A DNA stretch of 64,000 bases from an uncultured Acidobacteriota bacterium (GTDB lineage Bacteria; Acidobacteriota; Vicinamibacteria; Fen-336): positions 86,649 through 150,648 of the forward strand of contig CAWFSB010000040.1 in assembly GCA_963818355.1 (NCBI GenBank), read 5' to 3'. Positions 4,089 through 43,862 of the stretch are shown in pieces; position 1 is the first letter of the stretch, and every line of letters starts with the position of its first letter. A model generated the notes under the pieces. That model had not been told where the DNA came from and searched no databases. It saw nothing but the letters and a program-made list of their open reading frames with translations. The position numbers and the translations under genes are program-made.

Positions 4089-4241
4089 GTGTCATTCCGA
4101 GCGGGCACCGGCGGCTGCCGGTCGCCGATGGCAATGAACTTGTCACCCCGAGGAGCATCCGGGCCGGGCGACGAGGGGTCCGCCGGCGCCGGCGGATTCC
4201 TCGTCGCCTGGCACACGACCGTAGCTCCTCGGAATGACAGG
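4089..4241. repeat. composite palindromic repeat (family copy 1), bounded by TGTCATTCCGAG ... CTCGGAATGACA
   Basis: It contains TGTCATTCCGAGC, then CCGGTCGCCGATGGCAATGAAC, then TTGTCACCCCGAGGAGC..GGGCGACGAGGGGTCCGCC, then the inverted unit GGCGGATTCCTCGTCGCC..AGCTCCTCGGAATGACA. It lies directly after the dipeptidase stop codon. Confidence 0.85.
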
Positions 4242-4301
4242 GCCGGCGGCGAGGGCGCGTGGGCGGGGCCTTGGGATATAGTCGGGGACCCGGAGGCCGC
4301 C

Positions 4302-7072
4302 GTGGTGGAGACGACCCTGAAGACGCTCATCGAACGGTTCCGCAGCAAGCCCGAGTGGCAGCACGCCGACCCCGCCGTCCGCGCGGACGCCGTGCTCCGC
4401 CTGCCTTCCTCCGAGCACGAGGTCCTGCTCGCCCTCGCCCGGGAGGACGCCGACCCGCGCGTGCGCCGGGCCGCGGTGAAGAAGCTGTCGGACACGGCCG
4501 GGCTGGTCGAGATCGTCGCCTCCGAAGCGGACGCCGGCGTGCGGGACGAGGCGGAGGGCCGGCTGGCCCACGTCGCGGCGCACGAGCACGACGAGGCCGC
4601 GGCGAGGGCGGCGGTGGCCGGGCTGCGCGACGCGAAGCACCTCGCGGCCGTGGCGAAGGCCGCCCCCCTGGCGGCGACGCGGGAAGCCGCCATCCGCGCG
4701 ATCGCCGACCCCAGGTCCCTGGCCACGGTGGTCCGGGAGTCCGAGGACACCCCCACCCGGCTCCTCGCCCTCGGGCGGATCGAGGACGGCGCGACGCTGC
4801 TGGCCCTGGCCCTGAAGATCGAGCAGAAGTCGGTGGCCGTGGCCGCCGTGGACCGCCTGGTCGATCCCGAGGCCCTGAAGGCCGTGGCCCAGAAGGCCAA
4901 GGCGAGCGCGGCGGCCCGCCGTGCCCGCGCCCGGCTCGAGACCGGCGAGCCGGCGACCGCCGCGGCCGCGCCCCTCCCCGCCGCGACCGAGCACGACGAC
5001 GAGGCCGAGCGGCGCGCCTACGAGGAGGCCCGCGCCGCGCTCGAGCGCGAGGCCGCCGAGCGCACGCGGGCCAAGGACGCCCGCACGGCGCTCGCGGCGG
5101 CCGTCGACTCCGCCGAGGGCGAGGCGATCCCGCAGGCGATCGCGCACGCGCGTGAGGAGTGGGCGGGGATGGCACCCCTCGCCGAGGCCGATCGCGAGCG
5201 GCTCGACGGCCAGGTTTCCGCCGCCCTGGCGGCGGCCGAGAGACGACACGCCGCCTATCTCGCCGGCCTCTCGCGCCGGGAGGAGCTTCTGGCCCTCGTC
5301 CAGCAGGCGGAGGAGCTCGGCGGCCAGGAGCTCGGCGCCGCCCGCGCCGCCTTCCCGGCGCTCGACGCGAAGTGGCGCGAAGCCACGACCGGCGCCGACC
5401 TGCCCGACCTGCGGTCGCGGTTCGAGGCCGTCGCCGCCACCCTGCGCTCGCGGGGCCGCGCGGCCCGGGAGGAGCAGGCCCAGAAGGACCAGCAGCACCT
5501 CGACCAGCTCGTGCGGCTCGCCGGCCGGGCCGAGGCCCTCGTGGCCCGGGGGTCCGAGGTGTCCCTGCGCGACGCCGACCACGCGCTGCGCGAGATCCGG
5601 GAGGCCCTCGAGCACCCCGGGCACTTCCCGACCCGCAAGGACCGCGAGGCGGCCCTCGCCCGCCTCGACGCGGCGCGCAAGCACCTCTACCCGCTCCTGC
5701 AGCAGCTGCGCGAGGACGCGGAGTGGAAGCGCTGGGTGAACACCACCGTGCAGGAGGAGCTGTGCGCGAAGGCCGAGGCCCTCCTCGGGGAGGAGGACCT
5801 CGAGCGGGCCGCGAACACCCTGCGCGAGCTCGACGCCCGCTGGAAGCAGGCCAAGGAGGCCCCGAAGGACCAGGCGGAGGCCTTGTGGACGCGCTTCAAG
5901 GCGGCGCGCGACCAGGTCAAGTCGCGCACCGACGCCTTCTTCGCGAAGCAGGCCGAGGAGCTGGCGGGCAACCTGAAGAAGAAGGAGGCCCTGTGCGAGA
6001 GGGCCGAGGCCCTCTCCGAGTCCGCCGACTGGCTGAAGACCGCGGAGGAGCTGCGCAAGCTCCAGGCCGAGTGGAAGGAGATCGGGCCGGTGCCGCGCAC
6101 GGTGTCGCAGAGGGTGTGGGAGCGCTTCCGCAAGCCCTGCGACCACTTCTTCACCCGGTGGCAGGAGCACCGCAACCTGCGCAGCCACGAGTGGGCCGAC
6201 AACCTCGCGAAGAAGGAGGCCCTGTGCGAGAAGGCCGAGGCCCTCCGGGAGTCCACCGACTGGGAGGCCGGCACGGCCGAGCTCAAGCGCCTGCAGGCCG
6301 AGTGGCGCACGATCGGCGCGGTGAAGAAGGCCACGGTCCGAGGCGATCTGGCAGCGCTTCCGCGCCGCCTGCGACCACTTCTTCGACCGCTACAAGAACC
6401 GCGACGAGCACGCGCGGCAGGCCGCGCAGGACGCGCGGGAAACGATCTGCGCCGAGCTCGAGGCGCTCCTCCCCGCCGAGGGGGAGACCTCCGAGCCGCC
6501 CGCCGACCTCGTGGCGCGGCTGCAGGCGGCGCAGACGGCGTGGCGTCAGGCGGGCGGCCTGCCCCACGACCAGATGGCCGCGCTCGACGAGCGCTTCTCC
6601 GCGGTGCGCGACCGGCTCCTCCAGCTCTTCCCCCGCGCCTTCGAGGGCAGCGACCTCGACCCGGAGGCGAGCCGCCTCAAGGCCGAGAAGCTCGTCGTCC
6701 GCGTCGAGGGTCTCCTCGCGGAGCTCCTCCCGGGCGGCGGGGCGCCCCGGCCGCAGAACGCGGAGGAGCTCGCCGCGCGGCTGCGCGACGCGCTCGCCTC
6801 CAACACGATCGGCGGCCGCGAGGCGGTCGAGGCCAAGTGGCACTCGGCCTCGGTCGAGGTCGAGGCGGCACAGGCGGCGTGGAAGCGCCTCGGCCCGGTG
6901 CCAGGGGAGCGCGGGCCGCGACCTCTCGGCCCGCTTCGAGCACGCCTGCCGCCGCTTCTTCGAGCAGCGGCCGAAACCGAAGCCGGAGCGGGAGCGGCCG
7001 CGCGGAGACGGGTCGCGGCCCGGCGCCGGGCGCGGCCCTCGCCCGCGCTTCGACCGGCCGGACCGGCGCTAG
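4302..7072 (+). CDS. HEAT-repeat + DUF349-repeat coiled-coil protein (two frame breaks, near 6340 and 6910)
   Basis: GTG 4302 follows a GGAGG SD. The N-terminus has HEAT-like DPxVR repeats (DPAVRADAV, DPRVRRAAVKKL). Repeated DUF349 units follow (W..IGPVPR..S..VWERFRKPCDHFF, LWTRFKAARDQV). The sense reading passes from the frame of ORF 3534..9641 to that of 6511..8097 (SEAIWQRFRAACDHFFDRY) and then to the tail of 5159..7072 (DLSARFEHACRRFFEQR). Confidence 0.75.
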
Positions 7073-7084
7073 CGGGCGCCTCCC

Positions 7085-8206
7085 GTGCCGGCGCGTCGGG
7101 TGGCCCCGGGCGACGTCCTCGAGCTCTTCGTTCTCGCTCCCGTTCCCTCGTCCGACGCCGCGTCGATCCTCGCCACGTTCCGCAACGCGCGCGTCCTGGT
7201 CCCCTTCCCGCGGCGGGGCGGCGAGGCCGGGGCCCGCTGGCAGCGCATCATCCGCGCCCACGAGCGCACGCTCGCCGTCCTGGAGGGCCGGGCGCGCTCT
7301 GGAGCGCTCCCCTCCGGGAAGGGCCTGCGCGAGCTCGGGCGGGACCTCTTCGAGGTGCTCTTCCCCGGCGACGTGCGGCGCCTGTACGACACCGCCCGGG
7401 CGCTGCGCAAGCACGAATCGCTCGACGTCGTCTTCACCTCGATGCTCGACTGGGTGGCGGACAAGCCGTGGGAGCTCGCCTTCGACCCCTCGCGCCGCGA
7501 GTTCCTCGCCACGTCCTCCGTCAACTTCGTCCGCAACGCCTTCACCGCCGTCCCCGCGGACGCGCTCCCCCGCGGCCGGGGCCGGCTGCGCATCCTGGCC
7601 GTCGTCGCGCAGCCACGCGGGGCGGCGCCCCTCGACACGAAGACCGAGACGACCGACCTGCGCCAGGCGTTCCGCGCCCTCGTGGACGCCGGCCGCGCCA
7701 CGATCGAGGTCCTGGCGAAGGCGACCGCGGGCCGCCTGCAGCGCCGACTCGCCGCGGGAGGGGTCGACGTCCTGCACTACGTCGGCCACGGCGACTTCGA
7801 CGAGCGGGAGCGCGAGGGGTCGCTCCTCCTCGAGGACGATCGGGGGCGGCCCAGGCCCCTGGGCACCGATGCGCTCCGCCAGGTCCTGTGCGGGCGCTCT
7901 CTGCGCCTCGTCTTCCTCAACGCGTGCGAGACCGGGCGCGGAGGCCGCGTGGAGTGGAACCGCGGACTGGCGCCCGCGCTCGTCGCCGCCGGGATCCCCG
8001 CCGTCGTCGCCAACCAGTACCCGGTCGAGGACGCGGCGGCCACCGCCTTCGCCCGCGAGCTCTACGCCCAGCTCGCGGCCGGGAGCGCCCTCGGTGACGC
8101 GGCGCGCGAAGCGCGGGTCGCAGTGGGCCGCGAGCACGGGACCTCCTCGCTCGGCTGGGCCGTGCCCGTCGTCTTCGCCCGCGACCCGCGCGAGCCGCTG
8201 CGGTGA
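7085..8206 (+). CDS. stand-alone CHAT-domain (caspase-fold) protease
   Basis: ORF 7085..8206. It has DKPWELAFDP, a His motif VLHYVGHGDF and a Cys motif LVFLNACETG. No TPR or other partner domain is present. Confidence 0.75.
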   Translation: MPARRVAPGDVLELFVLAPVPSSDAASILATFRNARVLVPFPRRGGEAGARWQRIIRAHERTLAVLEGRARSGALPSGKGLRELGRDLFEVLFPGDVRRLYDTARALRKHESLDVVFTSMLDWVADKPWELAFDPSRREFLATSSVNFVRNAFTAVPADALPRGRGRLRILAVVAQPRGAAPLDTKTETTDLRQAFRALVDAGRATIEVLAKATAGRLQRRLAAGGVDVLHYVGHGDFDEREREGSLLLEDDRGRPRPLGTDALRQVLCGRSLRLVFLNACETGRGGRVEWNRGLAPALVAAGIPAVVANQYPVEDAAATAFARELYAQLAAGSALGDAAREARVAVGREHGTSSLGWAVPVVFARDPREPLR

Positions 8207-9541
8207 GGCGCGCCCTCCTCGGCCCCGTTCTGCTGGCCCTCGCGCTGCGCCTCGTCGCCATCCTCGCCACCGACCGGGTCGTGGCGGACGTCGAGCGCTA
8301 CGAGCGCGTGGCGGCCCACCTCCTGGACGTCTCGTGGAACCCCTACGAGACGAAGCGGCTCTACCCCTATCCCCCGCCGTGGGCGGCGGTGGAGGCGGCG
8401 GCCGAGTGGCTCGCCCGCCGCGGGACGGGCTCGTTTCCGGTGAACGTCAAGCTCCCCGTCCTCGCGGCCGACCTCCTGCTGGTCGCGCTCCTCGCCGCGG
8501 CCGCCGGCGCCGGGCGCGCCTCGCCGCTGGCGCCGTGGCTCTACGCCGCCCACCCCGTGAGCCTGCTCGTCGGCGGCGTGCACGGTCAGTTCGACGCCAT
8601 CCCGCTCTTCTTCCTCCTGCTGGCGACGGAGGCGCTCGCCCGGGGAAGGCGCGACGCCTCGGCGCTCGCCCTCGCGGCGGCGATCGCCTCGAAGTCCTTC
8701 CCGGTGCTGGCACTCCCCTTCCTGGCGTTCGGGACACGCGAGTCGTGGCGCTCCGCCGCGCGCTACGTCGCGCTCGCCCTCGCGCCGGGCGCGCTCCTGC
8801 TCCTGCCGTTCGCGATCGCCGACCTCGGCGCCCTGCGACGCGAGCTCTTCGCCTACGGCGGCATCGCGGACTTCGGCTGGACCGGCGTCCTGCGCGGGGC
8901 CGAGTGGCTGGCGACGGGTGCTCTGCCGCGCAGCGAAGCGCGCTTCTGGCCGGTGTCCTCCTTCCTCTCGAAGGCGCTCTTCCTGGCGGCCTGGGCGGGA
9001 CTCGTCGTCGCGGTGAGGTCCGGACGGCTGCGGCTCGGCCCGGAGCGCGCGATCCTCGCCACGCTGCTGGCCTTCTCCACGCTCTACGGACTCCTGAGCG
9101 CGCAGTACCTGCTGTGGGCGGTGCCCTTCGGTCTGCTGTGGACCGGCGGGCCGGCGGATTCCTCGTCGCCCGGCCAGATGCCAGCGAACTCGTCATTCCG
9201 AGGGACTTCGATCGGACGGGTCCCGAGGGATCCGCCAGGATCGCGGAGCCCTCTCGCTGCCCGCCGGGGATGCCATGGCTCGGCGCTGCCCGCTCCACGC
9301 CGCGGCGGCGACCGCGGGGCTCGTCGGCTTCTATCTCTTCCTCGCCCCCGGCACCCTGCTCCCCGCACCCCTCGAAGCAGGGGCGGCCCTCCTGGCCGGG
9401 CGCCTGTGGCTCGGCGGCGCGGCCGCGACGCTCGCGGCATCCGGCTTCTGGCTCGCCACGGTGGTGCGCGAGGGTTGGGACGGGGGCTTGCGGGCCGCCA
9501 CGGACGCGAGCGATCGCCCGTCGATCTCGCCCTCCCGCTGA
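8203..9541 (+). CDS. polytopic GT-C-fold membrane glycosyltransferase (DUF2029/GT87-like), C-terminus interrupted by a repeat copy
   Basis: GTG 8203 overlaps the CHAT stop (GTGA). The protein is multi-TM, with LYPYPPPWAAVEAAAEW in the first loop. The hydrophobic reading is lost at about 9145, where the repeat begins, and resumes in another frame as ORF 9275..9541 (AGLVGFYLFLAPGTLL..GFWLATVV). Confidence 0.5.
9150..9240. repeat. repeat family copy 2 (inverted half-unit + forward unit)
   Basis: GGCGGATTCCTCGTCGCCCGG ... CGTCATTCCGAGGGAC TTCGATCGGAC GGGTCCCGAGGGATCCGCC. Confidence 0.8.
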
Positions 9542-10341
9542 CGCAGCACCTCGAGCGGGGCCACGAGCCGCGGCAGCTCACCCGGCTCGAGGAGGTGGTG
9601 GGGGTTCGTCGGCCGGCCACGCTTCGCCTGCTCCGCCGTGAAGGTCTCGTACAGCAGGACCCCGCCGGGCTTCAGCGCGCGGACGAGCGCGGGGACGAGC
9701 GGCCGGTGGAGGTAGTTGAAGACGAGCACCAGCTCCCACTCCTCCTCGCCGAGGTCCACCGCGGCGTCCTCGAGATCCACGACCTCGGCGTCGAGCGGTA
9801 GCTGGAGGCGACGAGCCAGCGCGTTCAGCCACGCGACCTGCCCGGCGTCGCGGTCCACCGCGCGCACCGGGAAGCCGGCGCCGGCCAGGAGAAGCGCGTG
9901 CCGGCCGCGGCCGCAGGCCACGTCCAGCGTGCGGGCCCCACGGGGGGCGAGGTGCACGTTCGACAGGAGCCACGGCGAGGGGCCGCTGATCGGCGAGGGC
10001 TCGTGCACGCGCGGCCCCGTCCAGCGGGACATCCCGCCCGCCATGTTGCACGCCGCGACCCCGGCCTCCGCGAGCAGCGCCGCGGCCTGGCGCGACCGCA
10101 CGCCGTGCTCGCAGACGACCACGACCGGCCGGCCGTCGTCCGGGACGACCGCGGGGGCGACGGCCGCGAGCTCCACCGGCAGGAGGAGAGCGCCGGGGAT
10201 GTGGCCGAGCTCCTCGTGCTCGCGGGGCGTGCGCACGTCGAGGACGACCGCCCCGAGCGCCAGCAGGCGCTCGGCCTCCTCGGGCGACACGTTCTGGTAC
10301 GGGCGGGGCCCGCGATCTATAGTGACGGGAAGCGTGGGCAA
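9331..10341 (-). CDS. rhodanese domain - class I SAM-dependent methyltransferase fusion protein
   Basis: ORF 9331..10341. The rhodanese part has VLDVRTPREHEELGHIPGA and the active-site loop CEHGVRS. The methyltransferase part has LDVACGRGRHALLLA and LKPGGVLLYETF. The last ~60 aa are low-complexity and antisense to the TM-like ORF 9275..9541, so the true stop is uncertain. Confidence 0.7.
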   Translation of the reverse strand: MPTLPVTIDRGPRPYQNVSPEEAERLLALGAVVLDVRTPREHEELGHIPGALLLPVELAAVAPAVVPDDGRPVVVVCEHGVRSRQAAALLAEAGVAACNMAGGMSRWTGPRVHEPSPISGPSPWLLSNVHLAPRGARTLDVACGRGRHALLLAGAGFPVRAVDRDAGQVAWLNALARRLQLPLDAEVVDLEDAAVDLGEEEWELVLVFNYLHRPLVPALVRALKPGGVLLYETFTAEQAKRGRPTNPHHLLEPGELPRLVAPLEVLRQREGEIDGRSLASVAARKPPSQPSRTTVASQKPDAASVAAAPPSHRRPARRAAPASRGAGSRVPGARKR

Positions 10342-10410
10342 GGCGGGTCATGATAGGGCCCGCGCGGAAGGGGGACGAGTGCGCGGGATCACCTCGGCGG
10401 CGCGCGGGGC

Positions 10411-13111: not shown

Positions 13112-13495
13112 ATGGTCACAGTCTGTGCCTGGTGCCAGCAGTACATGGGCTCCAAGGAGCCCCTCCACAACCCTGCCGTGAGCCACGGCATCTGCAACGA
13201 CTGCGTCGAGCGGGGCCCTCTCGACGACGCGCCGGTGCTGGTGGTCAGCCGCGACCGCGTCGAGGCCATCCCCGTGCTGCAGACGCTGCTGCGCGGAGCG
13301 CCCGAGATCGCGATCGTGGTGGATCGCCGGGCCAACGAACGGCGTGAGCGGCCGCCCCGTGGCGTACGTCGCCGATCGTCGGGCCACGGACCGGCGGCGG
13401 GCGCCGTCTTTCTACCTGGTCTGACGCGCGGGCCTCAGCTCGCGGCGTCGCTCCCGAAGACGCGCTCGAAGACCGCGTCCACGTGGGTGAGGTAG
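13112..13495 (+). CDS. small Cys-motif protein (CAWC...SHGICNDC) with Arg-rich tail
   Basis: ORF 13073..13495. The likely start is ATG 13112 (MVTVCAWCQQYMG...VSHGICNDC). An alternative reading after ~13370 gives ...ADRRATDRRRAPSFYLV* ending at 13425, which would avoid overlap with purB. Confidence 0.45.
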   Translation: MVTVCAWCQQYMGSKEPLHNPAVSHGICNDCVERGPLDDAPVLVVSRDRVEAIPVLQTLLRGAPEIAIVVDRRANERRERPPRGVRRRSSGHGPAAGAVFLPGLTRGPQLAASLPKTRSKTASTWVR

Positions 13496-14743
13496 CGCTC
13501 GAGGCGGAACACCTCCTCGATCGCGGCCTCGCTCAGGACCGTGCGGATCTCGGGGTCGGCCAGCACGCGCTTCCGGAAGTCCCCCTCGCTCTTCCAGGCC
13601 TCCATCGCGTGCGCCTGGACCACCCGGTAGGCGTCCTCCCTCCTCATCCCCTTCGCGGTCAGCTCCAGAAGCAGCTGGCCGGAGAAGACGAGCCCCTGGC
13701 CGAGGTCGAGGTTCCGCCGCATGCGGGTCTCGTCGACGCTCATGCCCTTCACGATGCGGGTGAAGCGCGCCAGCATGTGGTCGAGGGCGAGGAAGCTGTC
13801 GGGCACGATCACGCGCTCGACCGACGAGTGCGAGATGTCGCGCTCGTGCCACAGCGCGACGTTCTCGAGCGAGGCGAGGGCGTTCGTGCGCACGAGGCGG
13901 GCGAGGCCGGCCACCTGCTCGCAGCCCACGGGGTTCCTCTTGTGGGGCATGGCCGAGGAGCCCTTCTGGCCCGAGCCGAACGGCTCCTCCACCTCGCGGA
14001 CCTCCGTCTTCTGGAGGGCCCGGATCTCGGTCGCGAACTTCTCGAGGCTGGCGGCGATCGAGGGCGAGGGTGGTCATCACCTCGGCGTGCCGGTCGCGCT
14101 GGAGGACCTGCGACGAGACGGGCGCGGGCAGCACCCCGAGCCGTGCGCACACCGCCTCCTCGACCTCCGGGGGCAGGTGCGAGAAGGTGCCCACCGCGCC
14201 CGACAGCTTGCCGAACGCGATGTTGGCCCGCGCCCGGTCGAGCCGCGCCAGCTGCCGCTGCAGCTCCGCGTGCCACAGCGCCATCTTCAGCCCGAAGGTC
14301 ATGGGCTCGGCGTGGACGCCGTGAGTGCGGCCGATCATCGGCGCGTGCTTGTGGCGCAGGGCCCGCGCCTGCACTGCCTCCATGAGGTCGAGGAGGTCGG
14401 CGCGGACGAGGTCGCAGGCGTCGCGCATCAGGATGGCGAGAGCGGTGTCCACCACGTCCGAGGAGGTGAGCCCGTAGTGCAGCCAGCGCCCCTCGGGCCC
14501 CACGCTCTCCGCCACGCAGGACACGAAGGCGATCACGTCGTGCTGGACCTCCTTCTCGATCTCCTCGATGCGCGCGACGTCGAAGCGGGCCTTCTCCTTG
14601 ATCGCGGCGAGGGCCTCCTTCGGCACGACGCCGCGCCCGACGAGGACCTCGGTGGCGGCGATCTCCACCTCCAGCCAGGTCGCGAAGCGGTTCTCGTCGG
14701 ACCACAGGCGGGCCATCTCGGGACGCGAGTAGCGAGGGATCAT
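13435..14743 (-). CDS. purB: adenylosuccinate lyase (frame break at about 14059)
   Basis: The N-terminus is in ORF 13412..14743 ([37 protein letters not shown]). The C-terminus is in ORF 13435..13992 ([16 protein letters not shown]). Removing one base from CTCGATCGCC restores ..[31 protein letters not shown]... Confidence 0.9.
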
Positions 14744-14800
14744 GGGCTTTCCTTCCCGCGGACGACGGGCAGACTACCACGCCCCGCTACGGACCCCGAG

Positions 14801-16566
14801 CTACGCCTCGAAGCGGATCGGCAGGTACTCCGGGAACCACATGGCCCGCTCGACCGTCTTCTCGAGGTGGTCGAGGATCTCCGGGTCCGCGTGGCCTTCC
14901 GCCACGGCCCGGCGGATCGTCGCGCAGGCCACCGCGAACGAGCAGTCCCGGATCCGCGCGAGCTCCGGGTAGACGGCGGTCTCGGCGAGGTCTTCGGGCT
15001 TCACCATGGCGGCGAGCGCCTTGGCGGCCTCGAGGAACATGCCGTTCGTCACGCGCCGCGCGCCGCTGACCGTCAGCCCCAGCCCCACGCCGGGGAAGAC
15101 GAAGGAGTTGTTGCACTGCCCGATGCGGTGCCGCTTGCCGTCCACGGTCACGGGATCGAACGGGCTGCCGGTCGCCACGATGGCCCTCCCCTCCGACCAG
15201 CGCAGGGCGTCCTCCGGCGTGACCTCGGTCTTCGATGTCGGGTTCGAGAGCGGGAGGATGATGGGCCGGGCGTTGATGCGGGCCATGGCCCGGACCACCG
15301 GCTCGTCGAAGACGCCCGGAGTCGCCGAGGTCCCGATGAGCATGGTCGGCTTCGCGTTCTCGATGGTCTCGAGCAGCGTGACGTGCGAGCGGTCCTTGCA
15401 GTCGTAGCCGGCCACCTCCTCCGCGGGACGCGCGTAGGTGGCCTTGTACTTCTCGAGGTTCGGCCGGTTCCAGGAGACGAGCCCGTGGCTGTCGGCCGTC
15501 CAGATGCGGCGGTTCGCCTCCTCCAGGCTGAGCCCGTCCTCCATGAACGCCGCCACCAGCAGCTCCGAGATGCCCTGGGCCGAGGCGCCCGCGCCCGCGA
15601 ACACCACCCGCTGGTCCCGCATCCGCTGGCCGGTGATGCGCAAGGCGCCGTACACCCCGGCGAGGACGACCGCCGCCGTGCCCTGGATGTCGTCGTTGAA
15701 GGTGCAGAGCTGGTCGCGGAAGCGGGCGAGCTGGAAGAGCGCGTTCTCCTTGAGGAAGTCCTCCCACTGCAGCACCACGCGCGGGAAGACCTTCTGCACG
15801 GCGGCCACGAAGGCGTCGATGAACTCCTGGTACTCCGCCCCGCGCACGCGCGGGTGGCGCATGCCGAGGTAGAGGGGGTCGTTCAGCCGCTCCTGGTTGT
15901 TCGTCCCCACGTCGAGCGTGATCGGGAGCGTGCTGTAGGGCGAGATGCCCGCGCACAGGGTGTAGAGGCAGAGCTTGCCGATCGGGATGCCCATCCCGCC
16001 CGCGCCCTGGTCGCCCAGCCCCAGGATCCGCTCGCCGTCGGTCACCACGATCACCGAGGGGTGCGGGATCCCGGCGTTGAGCGAGGATCGTCCTCGATGC
16101 GGTCCCGGTCCTCGTAGGCGATGTAGAGGCCGCGGCCACGCCGGTAGATGTGGTGGTACTTCTGGCACGCCTCGCCGACGACCGGCGTGTAGACGATCGG
16201 CATCATCTCGTCGATGTGCTCGAGGGCCAGGCGGTAGAAGAGCGTCTCGTTGCGGTCCTGCAGGCTGGTCAGGTAGATGAACTTCTCGAGGCTGCTCGTC
16301 TTCGCCTTGAAGTTCTCGTAGGTCCGGTCCATCTGCTGGCGGATCGTGCAGACGGCCGGCGGCACCAGGCCGCCGAGATCGAGCTCGTCTCGCTCGCGCC
16401 GCGTGAAGGCGGTGCCCTTGTTCGTGTGCGGGTTCAGCAGCAGCGCCCGGCCCCGCTCGGACACGGCCATGTAGGGCTGGCCGGTCGACGAGTCGATCTT
16501 GATGCTGAAGCTCATCGTGGCGGGCGTGACCCGGGAAGAGGTCGGCTCGGCGATTCCTGCGCTCAT
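14801..16566 (-). CDS. NAD(P)-dependent malic enzyme, paralog 1 (frame break near 16080)
   Basis: The N-terminus is ORF 16051..16566 (NKGTAFT..LQDRNETLFY..IVYTPVVGEAC). The rest is the C-terminal 425 aa of ORF 14801..16846 (VVTDGERILGLGDQGAGGMGIPIGK..FNDDIQGTAAV..LSNPTS). Confidence 0.85.
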
Positions 16567-31840: not shown

Positions 31841-31854
31841 GGGGTCAGGTGCCC

Positions 31855-31912
31855 TGTCATTCCGAGGAGCTTCGTCCGAGTCGGGCGACGAGGAATCCGC
31901 AGTCTCAGCGCC
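31855..31912 (+). repeat. repeat family copy 3 (single unit)
   Basis: TGTCATTCCGAGGAGC TTCGTCCGAGTC GGGCGACGAGGAATCCGC AGTCTCAGCGCC, lying between convergent genes. Confidence 0.85.
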
Positions 31913-31930
31913 CGGTCCAGGCGAAGCGGG

Positions 31931-32576: not shown

Positions 32577-33341
32577 CTACGTCCCTGAGCTCTCGGCCGG
32601 GTCGAGCGGGACGATCTCGAGCGGCTCGATGTCGATCGGCGCCGGCTCCGCGAGGTCGGCCGAGGGCTGGCCCGCGGCGCCAGCGAGGTCGGGCGCGAGC
32701 GGCTCGGCGGTGCACCAGCGCGACGAATCGCAGCAGCGCCTCGGTCTCGCCGGGCGGCACGAGGACCTCGGGCTCCGGCGCCCTGTCATCCCGAGGGACT
32801 CGGGCCTGCCGGGTCCCGAGGGATCCGCCGGGACTGCGGACCCCTCGTCGCCCGGCCTGACCGGAGCTCCTCGGGGTGACAACGTCATGGCCATCGGCGA
32901 CCGGCGCCAGTCCGGTCTCCGCCCGAGGCGACGACGGCTGCACGGCCGGTCCGCCGGCCCGATGTCGCGCGTCGGCCGTGACCGGTGCGCGCCAACGGCC
33001 ACTCGGGGCTCGACCGACGGAGTCCCGCGCACCACGAGCGCGCGAGCGCCACCAGCAGCGTCGCGGCCGCGGCCGCGGCCGGCCAGAGCCAGCCGAAGCG
33101 CCAAGCCGGGCGAAGAGTCCGGTCCGCCACCGCCTGGCGAATGCGAGCGGCCAGCTCCGGCGACGGCTCGGCGGCGCGCAGTCCGGCCAGCTCCGCGTCG
33201 GCCACGGCCAGCGCCTGCCGCAGCCCGTGCGAGCTCCGCCCGGCACTCCTCGCACGCGGCGAGGTGCGCCTCGAGGCCGGCCGGGGCCGGCAGGCCCGCC
33301 GCCACGTCGGCTAGCGCTTCCCGGTATCGCTCACAAGCCAT
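32577..33341 (-). CDS. anti-sigma factor (zf-HC2 + TM), disrupted by frame changes and a repeat copy
   Basis: ATG 33341 reads MACERYREALADV..LEAHLAACEEC (HxxxCxxC). The TM WLWPAAAAAATLLVALA lies in the frame of ORF 32885..33205. The repeat at 32784..32906 lies within the ORF. The C-terminal piece EVLVPPGETEALLRFVALV follows it. Confidence 0.6.
   Translation of the reverse strand: MACERYREALADVAAGLPAPAGLEAHLAACEECRAELARAAAGAGRGRRGAGRTARRRAVAGAGRSHSPGGGGPDSSPGLALRLALAGRGRGRDAAGGARALVVRGTPSVEPRVAVGAHRSRPTRDIGPADRPCSRRRLGRRPDWRRSPMAMTLSPRGAPVRPGDEGSAVPADPSGPGRPESLGMTGRRSPRSSCRPARPRRCCDSSRWCTAEPLAPDLAGAAGQPSADLAEPAPIDIEPLEIVPLDPAESSGT
32784..32906. repeat. repeat family copy 4 (composite, opposite orientation to copy 1)
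   Basis: TGTCATCCCGAGGGAC..GGGTCCCGAGGGATCCGCC, then inverted GCGGACCCCTCGTCGCCC..GCTCCTCGGGGTGAC, then GTCATGGCCATCGGCGACCGG. The reverse complement is nearly collinear with copy 1. Confidence 0.85.
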
Positions 33342-33933: not shown

Positions 33934-34101
33934 TGTCATTCCGAGCGGGAACTGGCTGTGGCCGGTCGCCGGTGGCAATGACCTTGCCGGCCCCGAGGAG
34001 CTCCATCCGGGTCGGGCGACGAGGGGTCCGCAGTTCCGCCGGCGCTGAGATTGCGGATTGCCTCGGCGACCAGCATCGAGCCGGAGTCCTTCGGAATGAC
34101 A
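33934..34101. repeat. repeat family copy 5 (composite palindrome)
   Basis: TGTCATTCCGAGCGGGAAC..GGTCGCCGGTGGCAATGACC..CCCCGAGGAGC..GGGCGACGAGGGGTCCGC..GCGGATTGCCTCGGCGAC..TCCTTCGGAATGACA. Confidence 0.85.
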
Positions 34102-34112
34102 AGGGACACGGG

Positions 34113-34567: not shown

Positions 34568-36004
34568 ATGGACGACTTCGATCTCGACCCCGAGGCGGTG
34601 CGCCGTCTCGGCTACCGGACAGCCGACCTCGTGGCCGACCACCGCGCCGGCCTGCTGAAGCGGCCGGTCTTCGGCAAGGTGGGCGACGCCGCGGCCCTCT
34701 TCGACGAGCCGCTGCCCGAGGACGGCCAGCCGCTCGAGGCGGTGCTCGACGCCGTGCGCGACCGTGTCCTCGCCCACCCCTTCGGCAACTCGCACCCGCG
34801 CTTCTTCGCCTTCATCAACGCCACCGCCGACCCCGTCGGCGCCGCGGTCGATTACCTGGCCTCGGCGATGAACAGCAACTGCTGGGGCGGAGACCACGCG
34901 GCCATCCACGTGGAGCGGCGCGTCGTCGCCTGGCTCGCGGAGATCCTCGGCCTGCCGGAGGCGACGGAGGGCCTGCTGACCTCCGGCGGCTCGATGGCGA
35001 ACTTCACCGCCCTCGCGACGGCGCGGCGCGCCAAGGCCCCGACCGTGCGCGAGGACGGCTTCGCGGGAACGCCGCCGCTGGTCGTGTACGTGTCAGACGA
35101 GGTCCACAACTGCGTGGACAAGGCCGTGGATCTCCTCGGCATCGGCTGGAAGCAGCTGCGGAAGATCCCGACCGACGACCGCTTCCGGGTGCGCGTGGAC
35201 CTGCTGAAGCGGGCGATCGCCGACGACCGGAAGGCCGGCCGGAAGCCGGCGATCGTCGTGGGCAACGCCGGCACCGTGAACACCGGCGCCATCGACCCGC
35301 TCGACGAGCTGGCCGACCTGTGCGCCGCCGAGGGCCTCTGGTTCCACGTGGACGGGGCCTACGGGGCGCTGGCCTCGATCTCGCCGAAGCTCAAGCCTCT
35401 ATTCAAGGGCCTCGAACGCGCCGACTCCGTCGCCGCCGACCCGCACAAGTGGCTCTACGTGCCCTACGAGGCCGGCGCCACCCTCGTCCGCGAGCCGGGG
35501 CGCATGGCCGAGGCCTTCCGCCGTCCCGCGCCCTACCTCGTGCACGACCCCGACAGCCCGGTCCTCGGCCCCGTTCTCTTCAACGAGCGGGGGCCGGAGC
35601 TCTCGCGCAGCTTCAAGGCGCTCAAGGTGTGGGTGGGCCTCAAGCACCACGGGCGCAGCGGCTACGCGGCCGCGGTCGAGCACGACGTCGCGATGGCGCG
35701 TTTCCTGGCCGACGCGGTCCGGGCGCGGGGCGACTTCGAGCTCCTGGCCGAGCCCGTCCTCTCGATCGTCGGCTTCCGGTACCGACCGGCCGGCCGGGGG
35801 CTCGCGGAGGCCGAGCTCGACCGGCTGAACCGGCAGATCGTGAACCGGCTCGTGGGCCGCGGCACCTTCTTCCTGGCGCCGACGATCCTGAAGGGCCGGA
35901 CGGCGATGCGCACGGCCATCGTCAACTTCCGGACGCGGGAGGACGACCTGCGCGCGCTGCTCGACGAGGCGGCACGGGCCGGCCGCGAGATCGAAGAGGG
36001 CTGA
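34568..36004 (+). CDS. pyridoxal-dependent (group II) amino-acid decarboxylase
   Basis: ATG 34568 lies within ORF 34505..36004. It has HPRFFAFI, LTSGGSMANFTAL, FHVDGAYGA and the PLP lysine motif SVAADPHKWLYVPYEAG. Confidence 0.85.
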   Translation: MDDFDLDPEAVRRLGYRTADLVADHRAGLLKRPVFGKVGDAAALFDEPLPEDGQPLEAVLDAVRDRVLAHPFGNSHPRFFAFINATADPVGAAVDYLASAMNSNCWGGDHAAIHVERRVVAWLAEILGLPEATEGLLTSGGSMANFTALATARRAKAPTVREDGFAGTPPLVVYVSDEVHNCVDKAVDLLGIGWKQLRKIPTDDRFRVRVDLLKRAIADDRKAGRKPAIVVGNAGTVNTGAIDPLDELADLCAAEGLWFHVDGAYGALASISPKLKPLFKGLERADSVAADPHKWLYVPYEAGATLVREPGRMAEAFRRPAPYLVHDPDSPVLGPVLFNERGPELSRSFKALKVWVGLKHHGRSGYAAAVEHDVAMARFLADAVRARGDFELLAEPVLSIVGFRYRPAGRGLAEAELDRLNRQIVNRLVGRGTFFLAPTILKGRTAMRTAIVNFRTREDDLRALLDEAARAGREIEEG

Positions 36005-36013
36005 AAGAAGAAG

Positions 36014-36047
36014 GGGTGGCCGCAGGAGGGAGAAACTGCGGCCACCC
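36014..36047 (+). terminator. 12-bp perfect hairpin immediately after the decarboxylase stop
   Basis: GGGTGGCCGCAG-GAGGGAGAAA-CTGCGGCCACCC. No U-tract follows. Confidence 0.5.
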
Positions 36048-36297
36048 GAGAAGTCCACCGACAGGATGCACCCAAGGCCCAACTTGGGGAATAGCCGGAA
36101 AGTGGGGGGTTGCATGGCACGAAGGTGCCGAATCAGGGTTTCATCAGGCACAGGACGACTAATTTAGATACGTTTTATGAGAATCCGAAGCGAGGTTGTC
36201 ATCATCGAGGTTCCCCAGCCGACCGGAACTTCCCCGTCCGCCCCCCGGCTCGCTTCAAACCGCGCGCGCCCCTCCGGCATCTCAAGGGTCGGAGCAA

Positions 36298-36891
36298 ATG
36301 ATGGAGGGGCTTGCAGGAGCGGTGCTCGGAGAAACGCTGACCCACATGCGTGAGGATGAGGACCGCCGGGCCACGGAGAAGCGGCTCGTCCGGGACGCCC
36401 AGAACGGCGATCTCGTGGCCTTCGAGCGCCTGTATCGCGACAACGAGCGGAAGGTGTTCGCCCTGTGCCTCAGGATGTCGTCCGACGGTGCTTTGGCCGA
36501 GGAGCTCACGCAGGAGGTTTTCGTGCGCGCCTGGCGCAAGCTCGGCAGCTTCCGCGGGGACAGCGCGTTCTCTTCCTGGCTGTACCCGCTGACGGTGAAC
36601 GTGGCGCTGAGCGAGCGCCGGTCGAGGCGGCGCCGGGACGCGCGGATCTTCGCGACCGACGATCCGGCGAGCCTGGAGAGGGCGCCGGGGTCGCCACGAC
36701 CCGAGGCGGGCTTCGACCTGGAGAAGGCGATGGCGACGCTGCCGCCCGGCGCGCGGGCCATCTTCGTGCTCCACGACGTGGAGGGCCGGACTCACGACGA
36801 GATCGCGGCGCTGCTGAACCTCGCGACCGGGACGTCGAAGGCGCAGCTCTTCCGCGCCCGGAGACTGCTCAGGGAGGCACTCGGATCATGA
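36298..36891 (+). CDS. ECF-type RNA polymerase sigma-70 factor
   Basis: ATG 36298 follows a GGAG SD, within ORF 36196..36891. It has DLVAFERLYRDNERKVFALCLRM, EELTQEVFVRAWRKLGSFRGDSAFSSWLYPLTVN, and region 4 THDEIAALLNLATGTSKAQLFRARRLL. Confidence 0.85.
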   Translation: MMEGLAGAVLGETLTHMREDEDRRATEKRLVRDAQNGDLVAFERLYRDNERKVFALCLRMSSDGALAEELTQEVFVRAWRKLGSFRGDSAFSSWLYPLTVNVALSERRSRRRRDARIFATDDPASLERAPGSPRPEAGFDLEKAMATLPPGARAIFVLHDVEGRTHDEIAALLNLATGTSKAQLFRARRLLREALGS

Positions 36892-37560: not shown

Positions 37561-37579
37561 GATGAAGAGGAGCAAGACC

Positions 37580-38458
37580 ATGAAGCGCGCAGCGCTCGTC
37601 CTCGCCGCCGTCCTCGCCGGATCAGCTTGGGCCAGTGCCCAGACCCCGGTCGACCAGAAGCGTCCCGCCGCCGCCGACGGGAAGGTGACGATCGAGAACA
37701 TGTCCGGATCCGTCAAGGTGACCGGCTGGGACCGGGCCGAGGTGCAGGTCAAGGGCACCGTCGGGAGCGGCGGCGAGCTGAGCTTCGACGGGTCCGAGAA
37801 GCAGACCTCGATCGAGGTCGAGGCCGAGCACGGCAACCCGATGGGCATCAAGAGCGACCTCGAGGTCTTCGTCCCCTCCGGAAGCTCCGTCTCCATCGAG
37901 GGCTTCGCGGCCTCGATCTCGGTGGCCGGGGTCACGGGCTCGGTGTCGGCCGAGACCGTCAACGGCTCGATCACCCAGACGGGAGCCGCGAAGGGCGTCG
38001 AGCTCCAGAGCGTGAACGGGGCGATCGACATGACGAAGGCGAGCGGCCGCCTCAAGGCCGAGGCCGTCAACGGCACCGTGACCGTCCGCGACGCGTCGGG
38101 CGAGCTCGAGGCCTCGACCGTCAACGGCAAGCTCGTCGTGACCGGCGGCTCGTTCGACCGGGCGGCGCTCGAGTCGGTGTCGGGGGGCGTGAAGTTCGAG
38201 GCGGGCCTCTCCCCCAAGGCCACGCTCTCGGTCGAATCGGTGAGCGGCTCGGTGGACCTCTTCCTCCCCGCCGGCTTCGGCGCGGAGTTCTCGGTGTCCA
38301 CCTTCAGCGGCGCGATCACGAACGAGCTCGGCCCGGCGGCCGAGAAGTCGAGCCAGTGGACCCCCCAGAAGGAGCTCTCGTTCACGACCGGCTCCGGCGG
38401 AGCGCGGATCACCGTGGAGACCCTCTCCGGCTCCGTCAACATCCGCAAGCGGCCGTAG
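37580..38458 (+). CDS. DUF4097-type putative adhesin / beta-helical secreted protein
   Basis: ORF 37562..38458. The likely start is ATG 37580, after a GAGGAG SD. It has the signal MKRAALVLAAVLAGSAWASA and repeated xVNGxI/V units (TVNGSIT, SVNGAID, AVNGTVT, TVNGKLV, SVSGSV). Confidence 0.75.
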   Translation: MKRAALVLAAVLAGSAWASAQTPVDQKRPAAADGKVTIENMSGSVKVTGWDRAEVQVKGTVGSGGELSFDGSEKQTSIEVEAEHGNPMGIKSDLEVFVPSGSSVSIEGFAASISVAGVTGSVSAETVNGSITQTGAAKGVELQSVNGAIDMTKASGRLKAEAVNGTVTVRDASGELEASTVNGKLVVTGGSFDRAALESVSGGVKFEAGLSPKATLSVESVSGSVDLFLPAGFGAEFSVSTFSGAITNELGPAAEKSSQWTPQKELSFTTGSGGARITVETLSGSVNIRKRP

Positions 38459-38466
38459 GCCCGTCC

Positions 38467-38523
38467 TGTCATTCCGAGGGACTCCGGTCGGACGGGTCCC
38501 GAGGAATCCGCAATCTCGGCGCC
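38467..38523 (+). repeat. repeat family copy 6 (single unit)
   Basis: TGTCATTCCGAGGGAC TCCGGTCGGAC GGGTCCCGAGGAATCCGC AATCTCGGCGCCGG. Confidence 0.85.
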
Positions 38524-38598
38524 GGCGGGCCGGCGGCCCTCCGCCCGGCACGAGTCCCGGGGGATACGCGACGACACGCAGCGAACAAGAGCAGAGCA

Positions 38599-39375
38599 AT
38601 GAAGCGCAAGACGATCCTGGCGACGATGTTGGCGGCGGCTCTCGCGGTTCCCGCGCTGTCGGCCCAGGACGAGTTCCACTGGACCGGCAAGGTCGCGGCC
38701 GGGGCCGCGGTCGAGATCAAGGGCGTGAACGGCGGCATCGTCGCGACCGGCGCCGCCGGCGGCGACGTCGAGGTGACCGCGGTCAAGAAGGGCCGCAAGA
38801 GCGACCCGGCCGAGGTGAAGGTGGAGGTCGTGGAGCACGCGGGCGGGGTGACGATCTGCGCGGTCTACCCGTCGACGGGCGCCCCCAACGAGTGCAAGCC
38901 CGGCGCGGGCGGGCGGATGAGCGTTCGCGACAACGACGTGAACGTCGAGTTCCGGGTGAAGGTGCCGGCCGGGGTGCGCTTCGTCGGCCGGACGGTGAAC
39001 GGCGGCATCGAGGCGAGCGGCATCACGGCGGACGCCGAGGCCCACACGGTCAACGGGGGCGTCGAGCTCGACGCGACCGGCACCGCGCGGGCCGAGACCG
39101 TGAACGGCGGCATCACGGCGCGCCTCGGAAGGACCGACTGGACGGGCGCCCTGACCCTGAAGACGGTCAACGGCGGGATCGAGATGACGATGCCCGAGGG
39201 GCTGAGCGCCGACGTGAAGGCCTCGACCGTGAACGGCGACATCCAGACCGACTTCCCGCTCACCGTCACCGGCCGGATCTCGCGCCGCAAGCTCGAGGGC
39301 ACGATCGGCAGCGGCGGCCGGCTCCTCGAGCTCTCGACGGTGAACGGCGGCATCGAGCTGCGCAAGGCCAGGTAG
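38599..39375 (+). CDS. DUF4097-type putative adhesin (second paralog)
   Basis: ATG 38599 lies within ORF 37627..39375. It has the signal MKRKTILATMLAAALAVPALSA and seven VNGG repeats (GVNGGIV, TVNGGIE, TVNGGVE, TVNGGIT...). Confidence 0.75.
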   Translation: MKRKTILATMLAAALAVPALSAQDEFHWTGKVAAGAAVEIKGVNGGIVATGAAGGDVEVTAVKKGRKSDPAEVKVEVVEHAGGVTICAVYPSTGAPNECKPGAGGRMSVRDNDVNVEFRVKVPAGVRFVGRTVNGGIEASGITADAEAHTVNGGVELDATGTARAETVNGGITARLGRTDWTGALTLKTVNGGIEMTMPEGLSADVKASTVNGDIQTDFPLTVTGRISRRKLEGTIGSGGRLLELSTVNGGIELRKAR

Positions 39376-39376
39376 C

Positions 39377-39492
39377 TGTCATTCCGAGGGACGCCGATCG
39401 GGCCGGGTCCGACGAGGAATCCGCAGTCTCGCGGCGCCGACACCGGCGGATTCCTCGTCGCCCGGCACAAGCCGAAGCTCCTCGGAATGACA
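39377..39492. repeat. repeat family copy 7 (two units in inverted orientation, near-perfect palindrome)
   Basis: TGTCATTCCGAGGGAC..GGGTCCGACGAGGAATCCGC AGTCTCGCGGCGCCGACACC GGCGGATTCCTCGTCGCCC..GCTCCTCGGAATGACA. Confidence 0.9.
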
Positions 39493-39562
39493 GGGGCCGT
39501 AAATCGACGCTCCCCGGGATGGCGGGGCCCTGATAGCATCTCGGCGTCCAAGAGGTGCACTC

Positions 39563-42500: not shown

Positions 42501-42885
42501 CTTCCACGGCCACAAGATCGCGATCCTCAACGAGACGTCGGCGTCGGACGGCGACATCTTCCCGCACATGTTCCGCAAGGCCGGGCTCGGCCCGCTGGTC
42601 GGCAAGCGCAGCTGGGGCGGCGTCGTCGGGATCGGCGGCCAGGGGCCGATGATCGACGGCGGCAGCGTGACCGTGCCCTCGAGCGGCACCAACGACGTGG
42701 ACGGCCGGTGGATCATCGAGGGCCAGGGCGTCGAGCCGGACATCGTGGTGGAGAACGACCCGAAGTCGGTGATCGCCGGGCGCGACCCCCAGCTCGAGCG
42801 GGCGGTCGCGGAGCTCGTCAAGAAGATGGACGCCGAGCCGATGACGCTGCCGAAGCGGCCGGCGGACCCGGTGAAGACGCAGTGA
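39563..42885 (+). CDS. tricorn protease homolog (S41B; beta-propellers + PDZ + S41 catalytic domain) (frame breaks near 41308 and 42090)
   Basis: ORF 39563..42145 reads [23 protein letters not shown].. and has FSPDGK-type blades. It continues in ORF 41277..44060 ([36 protein letters not shown]) and then in ORF 42082..42885 ([36 protein letters not shown]). Confidence 0.85.
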
Positions 42886-43668
42886 CGCCCGCGGGCGGGG
42901 CGGCCGGCATCGCCGTGATGCGGGGCGTCCCGCCCACGCTCGCCGACTGCGAGCTGACGTTCCACGCGCGGGAGCCGATCGACATCGGCCTCGCGGTCGC
43001 CCAGCACGCCGCCTACGGCGACCTCCTGCGCTCGTTCGGCCTCGAGGTCGTCGAGCTGCCGGCCGACCCCGCGCTTGCCCGACTGCTGCTTCGTCGAGGA
43101 CGTGGCCGTCGTCCTCGACGAGGTGGCGCTCCTGACGATGCCGGGGGCGGCTTCCCGGCGGGGCGAGCTCGTCGCGGTCGAGGCGGCGATCGAGCGGTTC
43201 CGCCCGATCGAGCGCACCGCGCTGCCCGCGACCCTCGAGGGCGGCGACGTCCTGCGCGTGGGCCGGACGCTCTTCGTCGGCCGCTCGGCCCGGACGAACG
43301 AGGCCGGAATCGCCCGCCTCGCCGCCGTCGCCGAGCCCCTCGGCTACCAGGTGCGGCCGGTCGCGGTGACCGGCTGCCTGCACCTCAAGAGCGCGGTCAC
43401 CGCCCTCGACGACGAGCGGTTGCTGGCCAACCCCGCCTGGATCGACATGTCCCCGTTCGTCGGGAAAGGCGTGGTGCCGGTGGACCCCGACGAGCCCGGG
43501 GCCGCCAACACCCTCCGCGTCGGTGGCGTCGTCGTCGCCCACCCCGGCTTCCCGCGCACCCTCGACCGTGTCGCCGCGCTCGGCTACGCCGTCCGCCCCC
43601 TGGACGTATCCGAGTTCGTCAAGGCCGAGGCCGCCCTCACCTGCAAGAGCCTCCTGTTCCGCGCCTGA
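42882..43668 (+). CDS. dimethylarginine dimethylaminohydrolase (DDAH) / amidinotransferase-fold enzyme (frame break near 43078)
   Basis: GTG 42882 overlaps the tricorn stop (GTGA). It reads ..[23 protein letters not shown].., then shifts to ORF 43075..43668 ([41 protein letters not shown]), which contains a catalytic Cys. Confidence 0.8.
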
Positions 43669-43675
43669 ACGCGCT

Positions 43676-43862
43676 GCCTGTCCCCCGAGGAGCTTCGACG
43701 CTTGCCCTTGTCATTCCGAGGAGCTTGGTCTTGCCGGGCGACGAGGAATCCGCCGGCCCGCCGGCGCTGAGACTGCGGATTCCCCCTCGCTTCTCGGCTC
43801 CCCGTCGTGCTCGGGGCTACGCCTCCAGTCCCGGATCGAGCCGGAGTCCCTCGGGATGGCCA
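43676..43862. repeat. repeat family copy 8 (truncated unit + full unit + degenerate inverted unit)
   Basis: CTGTCCCCCGAGGAGC.., then TGTCATTCCGAGGAGC TTGGTCTTGCC GGGCGACGAGGAATCCGCC GGCCCGCCGGCGCTGAGACTGCGGATTCC, then ..CGAGCCGGAGTCCCTCGGGATGGCCA. The right half is collinear with copy 5. Confidence 0.8.

Follow-up and report, generated by a model that had tools for sequence, protein, structure and literature searches.

A 64-kb stretch of DNA from an uncultured Acidobacteriota bacterium (assembly GCA_963818355.1, contig CAWFSB010000040.1, positions 86,649 to 150,648; ~73% G+C), referred to here as the window, carries a family of short palindromic repeats at 8 loci. The family is genuine, and its units probably represent a high-GC, long-loop, G·A-containing subfamily of the CGTC-tagged repetitive extragenic palindrome (CGTC-REP)/SRM hairpins that are targeted by the nuclease Ssn. 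The repeats are of a known kind, and they are new in structure and in host range.

The superfamily of CGTC-tagged REPs, with the families CGTC-1 to CGTC-4, is described by Di Nocera, De Gregorio and Rocco (2013, PMC3733652). For a long time these repeats were an orphan class without an enzyme, and the partner was supplied by the 2025 work on Ssn. According to Chenal et al. (2025, PMC11893778), SsnA, a nuclease of 94 aa consisting of a single GIY-YIG domain, binds and cuts the repeat NTS, CGTCATTCCCGCGMAVGCGGGAATCYRG, which contains Neisseria dRS3. Its substrate is exclusively single-stranded DNA (ssDNA), of which one strand only is targeted, and the first C located 3′ of the palindrome is the most crucial base for binding. 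The same study reports that repeats of this kind, named SRM, typically lie on both sides of ssn genes, and that 81% of the genomes with >200 SRMs encode an Ssn.

The repeat family and the structure of its unit

The core sequence TGTCATTCCGAG, allowing up to 1 mismatch, was found 11 times in the window, compared to 0.11 occurrences expected from shuffles, and none of 100 shuffles reached 11. The over-representation presumed by a previous sequence-only reading of this DNA is therefore real within the window. A covariance model, R1, built from 71 units (10 from the window and 61 from other genomes), recognized 12 full units in the window with scores of 30–67 bits, the next match being below 14 bits. 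These units start at positions 4138 (+), 4188 (-), 9188 (+), 31852 (+), 32781 (+), 32832 (-), 33990 (+), 34049 (-), 38464 (+), 39374 (+), 39442 (-) and 43706 (+). With the partial or degenerate pieces at 9154–9171 (-), 38527–38560, 43676–43700 and 43775–43862 (-), and with three type-2 hairpins carrying the module D, the 8 loci hold ~16–19 pieces in a total of ~1.0 kb, which agrees with the modular palindromic family of about 16 units and 1 kb counted by the sequence-only reading. The modules A, B, C and D into which that reading had dissected the repeats were all found where it had placed them, module D at 4118, 32885 (-) and 33962. Inverted pairs of units, bounded by TGTCA...TGACA, form palindromes at loci 1, 4, 5, 7 and 8, five loci as had been proposed, and locus 2 is composed of one unit and an inverted 3′ half. 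The collinearity of composites suggested for loci 1, 4, 5 and 8 holds for the first three of them, while locus 8 has no module D and is only loosely collinear. No repeat units were detected from 43.9 to 64 kb, a region holding polyketide synthase (PKS) and non-ribosomal peptide synthetase (NRPS) genes. A link to a known Rfam family did not emerge either, as the window gave no match at gathering thresholds, and the E-value mode, applied to two stretches, produced only far-subthreshold, chance miRNA-like hairpin matches. A literature search with the core sequence returned unrelated primers only.

Read in the 5′ to 3′ direction, the unit consists of (T/C)GTC, ATTCC, GA, a G followed by 3–4 variable bases, a loop, the complementary bases followed by C, GA, GGAAT and C-CGC, and it measures ~45–50 nt from tag to tail. 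Module C (ARTCTCRGCGCCGG) is often found directly 3′ of the unit. The pairing begins with a 5-bp ATTCC/GGAAT base, continues through a tandem G·A/A·G and a G-C pair, and ends in a covarying GC-rich upper stem of ~5 bp, which is either of the Watson-Crick type (GGGAC/GTCCC, GGGCC/GGCCC and others) or includes a second tandem G·A (GGAGC/GCGAC). The 5′ GTC and the first C located 3′ of the palindrome are left unpaired. The tag is TGTC in 10 window units, CGTC in 1 and lost in 1 degenerate unit, leaving GTC intact in 11/12, and both the C after the palindrome and the CCGC tail are present in 12/12. The stem arms are separated by 18–24 nt in the window, of which the loop takes up 9–15 nt.

A single unit is a covarying hairpin. 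For the 71 units, the covariation score was 0.191 compared to 0.066 in shuffles, a value reached by 0 of 500 shuffles, and slid controls remained at or below 0.071; the RNAalifold consensus agrees with this structure. Pair 18-44 is G-C 31 times, C-G 19 times and A-U 8 times, while pairs 8-54 (A-U) and 9-53 (U-A) are kept in 71/71 and 69/71 units, the two exceptions being compensatory C-G. Compensatory swaps of the outer stem also occur within the window, as ACCCC/GGGGT at 4138 and 32832 and as ATCCC/GGGAT at 32781. Inverted dimers fold into long hairpins, with z-scores of -8.0, -7.5 and -4.7. With respect to orientation, 14 dimers are head-to-head (HH, tags outside), 1 is tail-to-tail (TT, tags inside) and 3 are head-to-tail (HT, tandem). 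The type-2 unit (TGTCATTCCGAGCGGG...GGCAATGA) forms a small hairpin of its own (z -2.1 to -2.6), and it adjoins a dimer at loci 1, 4 and 5, generating mosaics that resemble bacterial interspersed mosaic elements (BIMEs).

Association of related units with ssn genes

A scan of one genome per species for the exact pattern GTCATTCCGAGG-N12-30-CGAGGAATCCGC retrieved at least 69 stretches. Among the 69 listed loci, one, L053, belongs to an Acidobacteriaceae metagenome-assembled genome (MAG) in which an exact window-type unit is also present, and it encodes a 116-aa protein composed of a GIY-YIG domain only. This ssn gene is bracketed by inverted CGTCATYCCGAGCG...GCGAGGGATC units, also read as CGTCATYCCGAGCG...GCGAGGGATCTCC, with their tags pointing outward. 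Its product shares 40% identity (E 6e-23) with a 94-aa SsnA-type open reading frame (ORF) of N. gonorrhoeae, which itself sits among NTS copies. The L053-type profile matched ~16,000 representatives of 50% identity clusters at E <=0.001, and searches of PDB and NCBIfam with the Ssn homologue gave only a distant UPF0213 GIY-YIG structure.

In a metagenome scan, 80 ssn loci were obtained, 72 of them with sufficient flank. A forward tag was present upstream of ssn in 53 of these 72 and a reverse tag downstream in 65. Both were present in 50, where the ssn homologues are flanked by sister units with tags outward, GTCATTCCGAGCGCAGCGAGGAATC being among the examples. The units next to ssn share the architecture NGTCA-YY-CC-GA...GA-GG-RR-TC, and 156 out of 157 have the ATCCC/GGGAT form. 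Furthermore, the window-derived model R1 matched ssn flanks over its full length and in the expected orientation in 14 of 19 matches, and it also scored ~30 bits at L157 and L158. At L157, GTCATTCCGAGCGCAGCGAGGAATCTGC is found on both sides of ssn with tags outward, at L151 TGTCATTCCGAGCG...(30 nt)...GAGCGAGGAATC is located on both sides in the same orientation, and at L155 the gene is flanked by a covarying ATTCT/AGAAT form. Other Ssn clades are flanked by ATTCC/GGAAT-type units. Traces of such units could also be present in the proteins, as 12 of 507 retrieved proteins, among them representatives from an unannotated library, end in ...ADSS..., five of these 12 in ...ADSS(L/P)...RSE. These tails are consistent with, and do not uniquely back-translate to, reading into an inverted ...CGAGGAATCCGC unit.

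Many acidobacterial loci (L070–L149) also have a conserved stretch (...GTTCATTCGTCACAGACAAA...) within the ~60 nt that separate the upstream unit from the ATG of ssn, possibly a promoter/operator or a second recognition element.

Proposed mechanism and its weighing

According to the mechanism proposed here, a TGTC...CCGC strand in single-stranded form would fold into the hairpin, leaving GTC and the C after the palindrome free. A small single-domain GIY-YIG nuclease, Ssn, would bind this hairpin in a strand-specific manner, by analogy with NTS and SsnA in Neisseria, and would cut a few nt upstream of the tag. The gene of this nuclease would lie in another part of the genome, as a rule between two such units, and the activity of the enzyme would influence what becomes of ssDNA (incoming or replicating DNA, recombination) and possibly how the units spread and turn over. 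Based on the CGTC-REP features of the units and on the NTS/SsnA precedent, an ssn-type GIY-YIG gene, and not a REP-associated tyrosine transposase (RAYT), is the gene to be expected genome-wide. As the units are located directly after stop codons, they would also be transcribed as 3′-end hairpins, which may constitute a secondary, host-level effect.

Several observations weigh against assigning the repeats to Ssn. Pfam scans revealed no transposase, RAYT or GIY-YIG gene among the called genes of the window, in line with the absence of RAYT and transposase already stated by the sequence-only reading, and no ssn gene was detected in the window by a sensitive six-frame search with the Ssn profile (hmmsearch --max), where the best E-value was 1.3. 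At the DNA level, an ssn gene flanked by the exact long-loop, CCGC-tailed form GAGGRRC...GYYCCGAGG was not seen, the flanks that were seen being those of sister subfamilies. Because of these two results, we only infer the recognition step, and with it a cognate Ssn in the source genome that would cleave the window units. In addition, the published SRM pattern HGTCWYN(0-2)YYVSBRHN(0-5)WNVSBRGN(0-2)RNCYNB matched 0/12 window units, and its 2 matches in the window are unrelated to them. CGTC REPs have a stem of 8–9 bp and a loop of 4–5 nt (PMC3733652), while the stem of the window units is interrupted by G·A and their apical part is long and variable, exceeding these dimensions. Single units have z ~0 in nearest-neighbour folding, both as DNA and as RNA, and are not unusually stable. 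Finally, no new insertions distinguish the window from a related MAG across an 8-kb syntenic stretch (see below), so current mobility is not supported.

A bolder version of the same proposal appears possible, although we hold it to be doubtful. A distinct Ssn clade could read the mismatch-containing bipartite stem, which would represent a new ssDNA specificity, or the units could persist in this high-GC acidobacterial lineage without a cognate nuclease, as an old, vertically inherited network that serves the host at the 3′-ends of its genes (through RNA 3′-end structure or control of recombination). In either case, a large branch of the system from soil bacteria, spanning several phyla, would have escaped the published SRM censuses.

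Distribution and evolution in other genomes

The hosts among the matches listed are mostly Acidobacteriota, and the remaining ones include Planctomycetota, Gemmatimonadaceae, Polyangiaceae, Chloroflexota, one betaproteobacterium, a Patescibacteria-labelled MAG and an Oscillospiraceae MAG. Across these matches, the flanks of the unit are identical, and the inner stem and the loop are variable. Model R1 detected 120 units on the 69 listed loci, where the recurrent neighbours belong only to generic families (kinases, ABC transporters, short-chain dehydrogenases/reductases, etc.).

One of the loci, L009 (Acidobacteriota MAG MFD10007.bin.2.143), is syntenic with 34.3–42.3 kb of the window at 85–91% identity. 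The unit at 38464 has an orthologue there, with the loop as the sole difference. A second tandem unit next to it is intact in L009 and eroded in the window, and the cluster of locus 7 is rearranged between the two. This comparison indicates that the repeat sites are old, that their conserved parts are maintained and that the clusters turn over locally.

Two other features were noted in the course of these comparisons. Upstream of the ECF sigma gene (36322–36891), positions 36004–36322 of the window are mostly diverged from 1667–1891 of L009, with the exception of a conserved block, CAAACCGC...CCCCTCCGGCATCTCAAGGnTCGGAGCA, right before the start codon of the sigma gene, which is possibly a promoter or a leader. 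In low-GC Terriglobia loci (L013, L033, L043, L049, L062), the units lie within a larger palindrome, with GCTGAAAAA upstream and TTTTTCAGC downstream. This arrangement, which the high-GC window lacks, is reminiscent of a bidirectional terminator.

Alternative explanations

In regard to the classification of the repeats, the sequence-only reading had proposed a system similar either to REPs and BIMEs or to miniature inverted-repeat transposable elements (MITEs). The first half of this proposal is sustained, as the units are extragenic hairpins present as singletons, inverted dimers and mosaics with a second unit. MITEs and RAYT-driven REPs are both disfavoured by the (T/C)GTC tag, the lack of target-site duplications, the covarying single hairpin and the conservation of the sequence across phyla. 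Classical REP elements, or their inverted doublets (REPINs), mobilized by a RAYT (a Y1 HUH transposase) encoded elsewhere would account for extragenic palindromes and for inverted doublets that form long hairpins (z -4.7 to -8), and Quentin et al. (2018, PMC6006769) report Y1 class 3 genes with high-copy hairpins from Acidobacteria and Planctomycetes. Such an origin is nevertheless improbable. The tag of the units is not GT[AG]G, and the class 3 repeats have a different sequence, CnGAGCCGCGACCGTnAGGGAGCG. CGTC REPs are reported (PMC3733652) never to flank tyrosine transposase genes, and neither a Y1 gene among the called genes of the window nor a recurrent neighbour in the 69 listed loci was found. 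An origin as MITEs, derived by deletion from a DDE insertion sequence whose terminal inverted repeats are TGTCATTCCGAGG, is more improbable still. Five loci do form imperfect palindromes of 100–190 bp that start with TG and end with CA. However, the dimer ends at 4141–4239, 32784–32881 and 39377–39492 show no target-site duplications or direct repeats, and the two halves of a dimer are variably spaced. Many units occur singly and already form a covarying hairpin by themselves, identical ends are found across many phyla without a matching insertion sequence, and 2.9 million viral contigs gave 0 matches.

The repeats could also be explained primarily as an RNA element, a hairpin of the 3′ untranslated region acting as a terminator or stabilizer of mRNA, maintained by selection on the transcript, with no nuclease involved. 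The placement of the units, which start 1–21 nt 3′ of stop codons, fits such a role, as does the orientation of singletons, 24 of which are sense and 9 antisense to the nearest upstream gene (p = 0.014), and in genomes with GC <0.63 a T-run lies 3′ of 20/32 units. On the other hand, T-runs follow 0/34 units in high-GC sequences including the window and, where present, begin 4 nt beyond the stem. The ~24 nt conserved across phyla are far beyond structural need, there is no Rfam family, and single-unit RNA folds have z ~0. An RNA-level role is compatible with the placement and the orientation bias and may coexist with a nuclease role, but it leaves the cross-phylum conservation of the sequence unexplained, and as the primary explanation we consider it unlikely. 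Intrinsic terminators in the strict sense, GC-rich hairpins directly followed by a U/T tract, were rejected, given the lack of T-runs at the 34 high-GC units and the 4-nt gap in low-GC genomes. The last explanation considered is that the repeats are conserved coding segments and that the peptides CHSEE, VIPRS and GDEESA are real. Long ORFs indeed cross units (8203–9801; the anti-sigma ORF ends at 32885), and such peptides are found at the termini of many proteins in databases. However, the periodicity of G+C at third codon positions (GC3) that marks the flanking genes collapses across the repeats at 8/8 loci, and both strands and every reading frame contain units. The collapse extends the intergenic or post-stop placement recognized beforehand at six loci to all 8, though two ORFs read into or through clusters. 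Orthologous clusters are rearranged between close relatives whose flanking genes are still 85–91% identical, unlike the conserved coding segments that the sequence-only reading had allowed for. The coding explanation is effectively refuted.

Organization of the individual loci

At locus 1, a type-2 hairpin at 4090–4137 (+; TGTCATTCCGAGCGGG...CCGGTCGCCGATGGCAATGA, exact module D, DNA fold -13.5 kcal/mol, z -2.1) precedes an outward-tag dimer (z -8.0). The left half of the dimer is the full unit at 4138–4187 (+; 50.8 bits), with an ACCCC/GGGGT stem that is doubly compensatory in the alignment, and the right half is the full unit at 4188–4242 (-; 63.4 bits). Locus 2 holds an isolated inverted 3′ half, consisting of module B only with 0 mismatches, at 9154–9171 (-), and the full unit with the CGTC tag at 9188–9239 (+; 54.6 bits). 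The membrane-protein-like ORF 8203–9801 (+) passes through this locus without an in-frame stop until 9799, and the repeat may have replaced the original stop of the ORF. The same ORF overlaps a convergent rhodanese/methyltransferase gene (9331–10341). The third locus is a single full unit extended at its 3′ side by module C (AGTCTCAGCGCCCG), at 31852–31914 (+; 66.6 bits), with convergent genes on either side.

At locus 4, the dimer (z -4.7) is composed of the ATCCC/GGGAT variant at 32781–32832 (+; 62.3 bits) and the ACCCC/GGGGT variant at 32832–32884 (-; 61.3 bits), both full units, and is followed by a type-2 unit at 32885–32936 (-), identified by its module D, which according to the ORF reading gives the anti-sigma ORF its stop codon. 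Locus 5 starts with a type-2 unit at 33934–33985 (+; module D match, z -2.6) and continues with a degenerate unit that has lost its 5′ tag, at 33990–34035 (+; 30.1 bits), and with a partly degenerate unit at 34036–34104 (-; 31.9 bits), in which module C was matched at 34039–34052. Locus 6 is a single full unit with module C at 38464–38525 (+; 65.2 bits), located 8 nt past the stop of a DUF4097 gene and orthologous to the L009 unit; the alignment reveals the eroded remnant of the second tandem unit at 38527–38560 (+). The dimer at locus 7 (z -7.5 as DNA and -7.7 as RNA) begins 1 nt after a stop codon and is formed by the full units at 39374–39428 (+; 52.4 bits) and 39442–39495 (-; 66.5 bits). 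Locus 8 comprises a partial 5′ half (TGTCCCCCGAGGAGC...) seen by sequence inspection at 43676–43700 (+), a full unit at 43706–43757 (+; 66.1 bits), and module C with a degenerate inverted unit of expanded loop at 43761–43862 (-), where R1 gave a weak match at 43810–43853.

The neighbours of the repeats are ordinary housekeeping and regulatory genes, i.e. an M19 dipeptidase, extracytoplasmic function (ECF) sigma and anti-sigma factors, an NFACT-R protein, two DUF4097 proteins, PD40, a phosphodiesterase and ThuA. No tRNA genes are present in the window. Genes appear to be split by frame changes within 13412–16515, 31700–31850 and 32885–33300: a malic enzyme is divided into 14801–16054 and 16051–16515, adenylosuccinate lyase has its C-terminus in 13435–13992 and the remainder in another frame, the anti-sigma factor switches frame, and the codon phase of the phosphodiesterase shifts ~120 nt before the TAA at 31838. 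Such splits suggest indel errors, possibly of a long-read MAG, or pseudogenes. Two malic-enzyme paralogues are adjacent and divergent, at 14801–16515 (-) and 16861–18552 (+). The biosynthetic cluster in the repeat-free part includes a type I PKS (KS-AT-KR-DH-ACP-TE) at 48254–54040 and an NRPS-like gene at 56632–63294, with luciferase-like monooxygenase, A, C, PCP and TE domains.

Significance and comparison with known systems

Our results suggest that the Ssn/SRM repeats extend well past the published motif definition, into phyla that are abundant in soil (Acidobacteriota, Gemmatimonadota, Planctomycetota and Chloroflexota), with hairpins that, unlike the published motif, combine conserved G·A mismatches with long, variable loops. 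This could be useful for SRM censuses and in the search for Ssn enzymes that might serve as tools with new ssDNA specificities. The units also matter for annotation, as they give rise to many false peptides and artificially extended ORFs (CHSE..., ...EIPRSA and ...ADSSLRSE, among others). Many predicted Ssn proteins, and other proteins too, were observed with repeat-derived N- or C-terminal extensions (EIPRSA, ...AGENAGLRDDA, ADSSLRSE, CHSERS...SEES, QIPRFARDDK), and such extensions are systematic annotation artefacts of the repeat superfamily.

The REP-BIME and REPIN-RAYT systems of E. coli and Pseudomonas have in common with the window family the small extragenic palindromes, the inverted doublets and mosaics, the long hairpins formed by doublets, and a single-copy gene bracketed by repeats as the presumed partner. 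They differ by the GT[AG]G tag and the Y1 HUH transposase, and they are usually lineage-specific, while the window unit is found across phyla. The Y1 class 3 HuH genes with high-copy, CnGA-footed hairpins, described by Quentin et al. (2018, PMC6006769) in Acidobacteria and Planctomycetes, resemble our repeats in their host phyla, their high copy number and an internal tandem G·A (CCGC-GA-CC...GG-GA-GCGG), and they differ in sequence (CnGAGCCGCGACCGTnAGGGAGCG) and in the associated protein. These class 3 REPtron repeats were rejected as the partner system, as the sequences differ.

The CGTC REPs (PMC3733652) carry a CGTC or TGTC (or CCTC) tag, a stem that opens with A-T and T-A, and a short tail with the consensus CCA. 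HH dimers predominate among them, TT dimers are rare and HT negligible. They are located downstream of ORFs, between unidirectional or convergent genes, have no tyrosine transposase, and include Neisseria dRS3. In the part of that paper drawn upon, Acidobacteria appear only with tyrosine transposases. The window units share with these REPs the (C/T)GTC tag, the A-T/T-A start of the stem, the HH dimers and the placement after ORFs, and their tail, CCG(C) instead of CCA, shares the CC and differs in the third base.

In comparison with NTS and the SRMs, the window units are longer, ~45–50 nt from tag to tail instead of the 28 nt of NTS, and they are distinguished by the tandem G·A/A·G conserved next to the 5-bp base, a second covarying stem, a loop of 9–15 nt, the CCGC tail and the extra 3′ module ARTCTCRGCGCCGG. 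Common to both are the unpaired (C/T)GTC, the palindrome ATTCC...GGAAT and the C that follows it. Likewise, both are oriented, extragenic, high-copy hairpins found in many phyla, and units related to them bracket ssn genes with their tags pointing outward.

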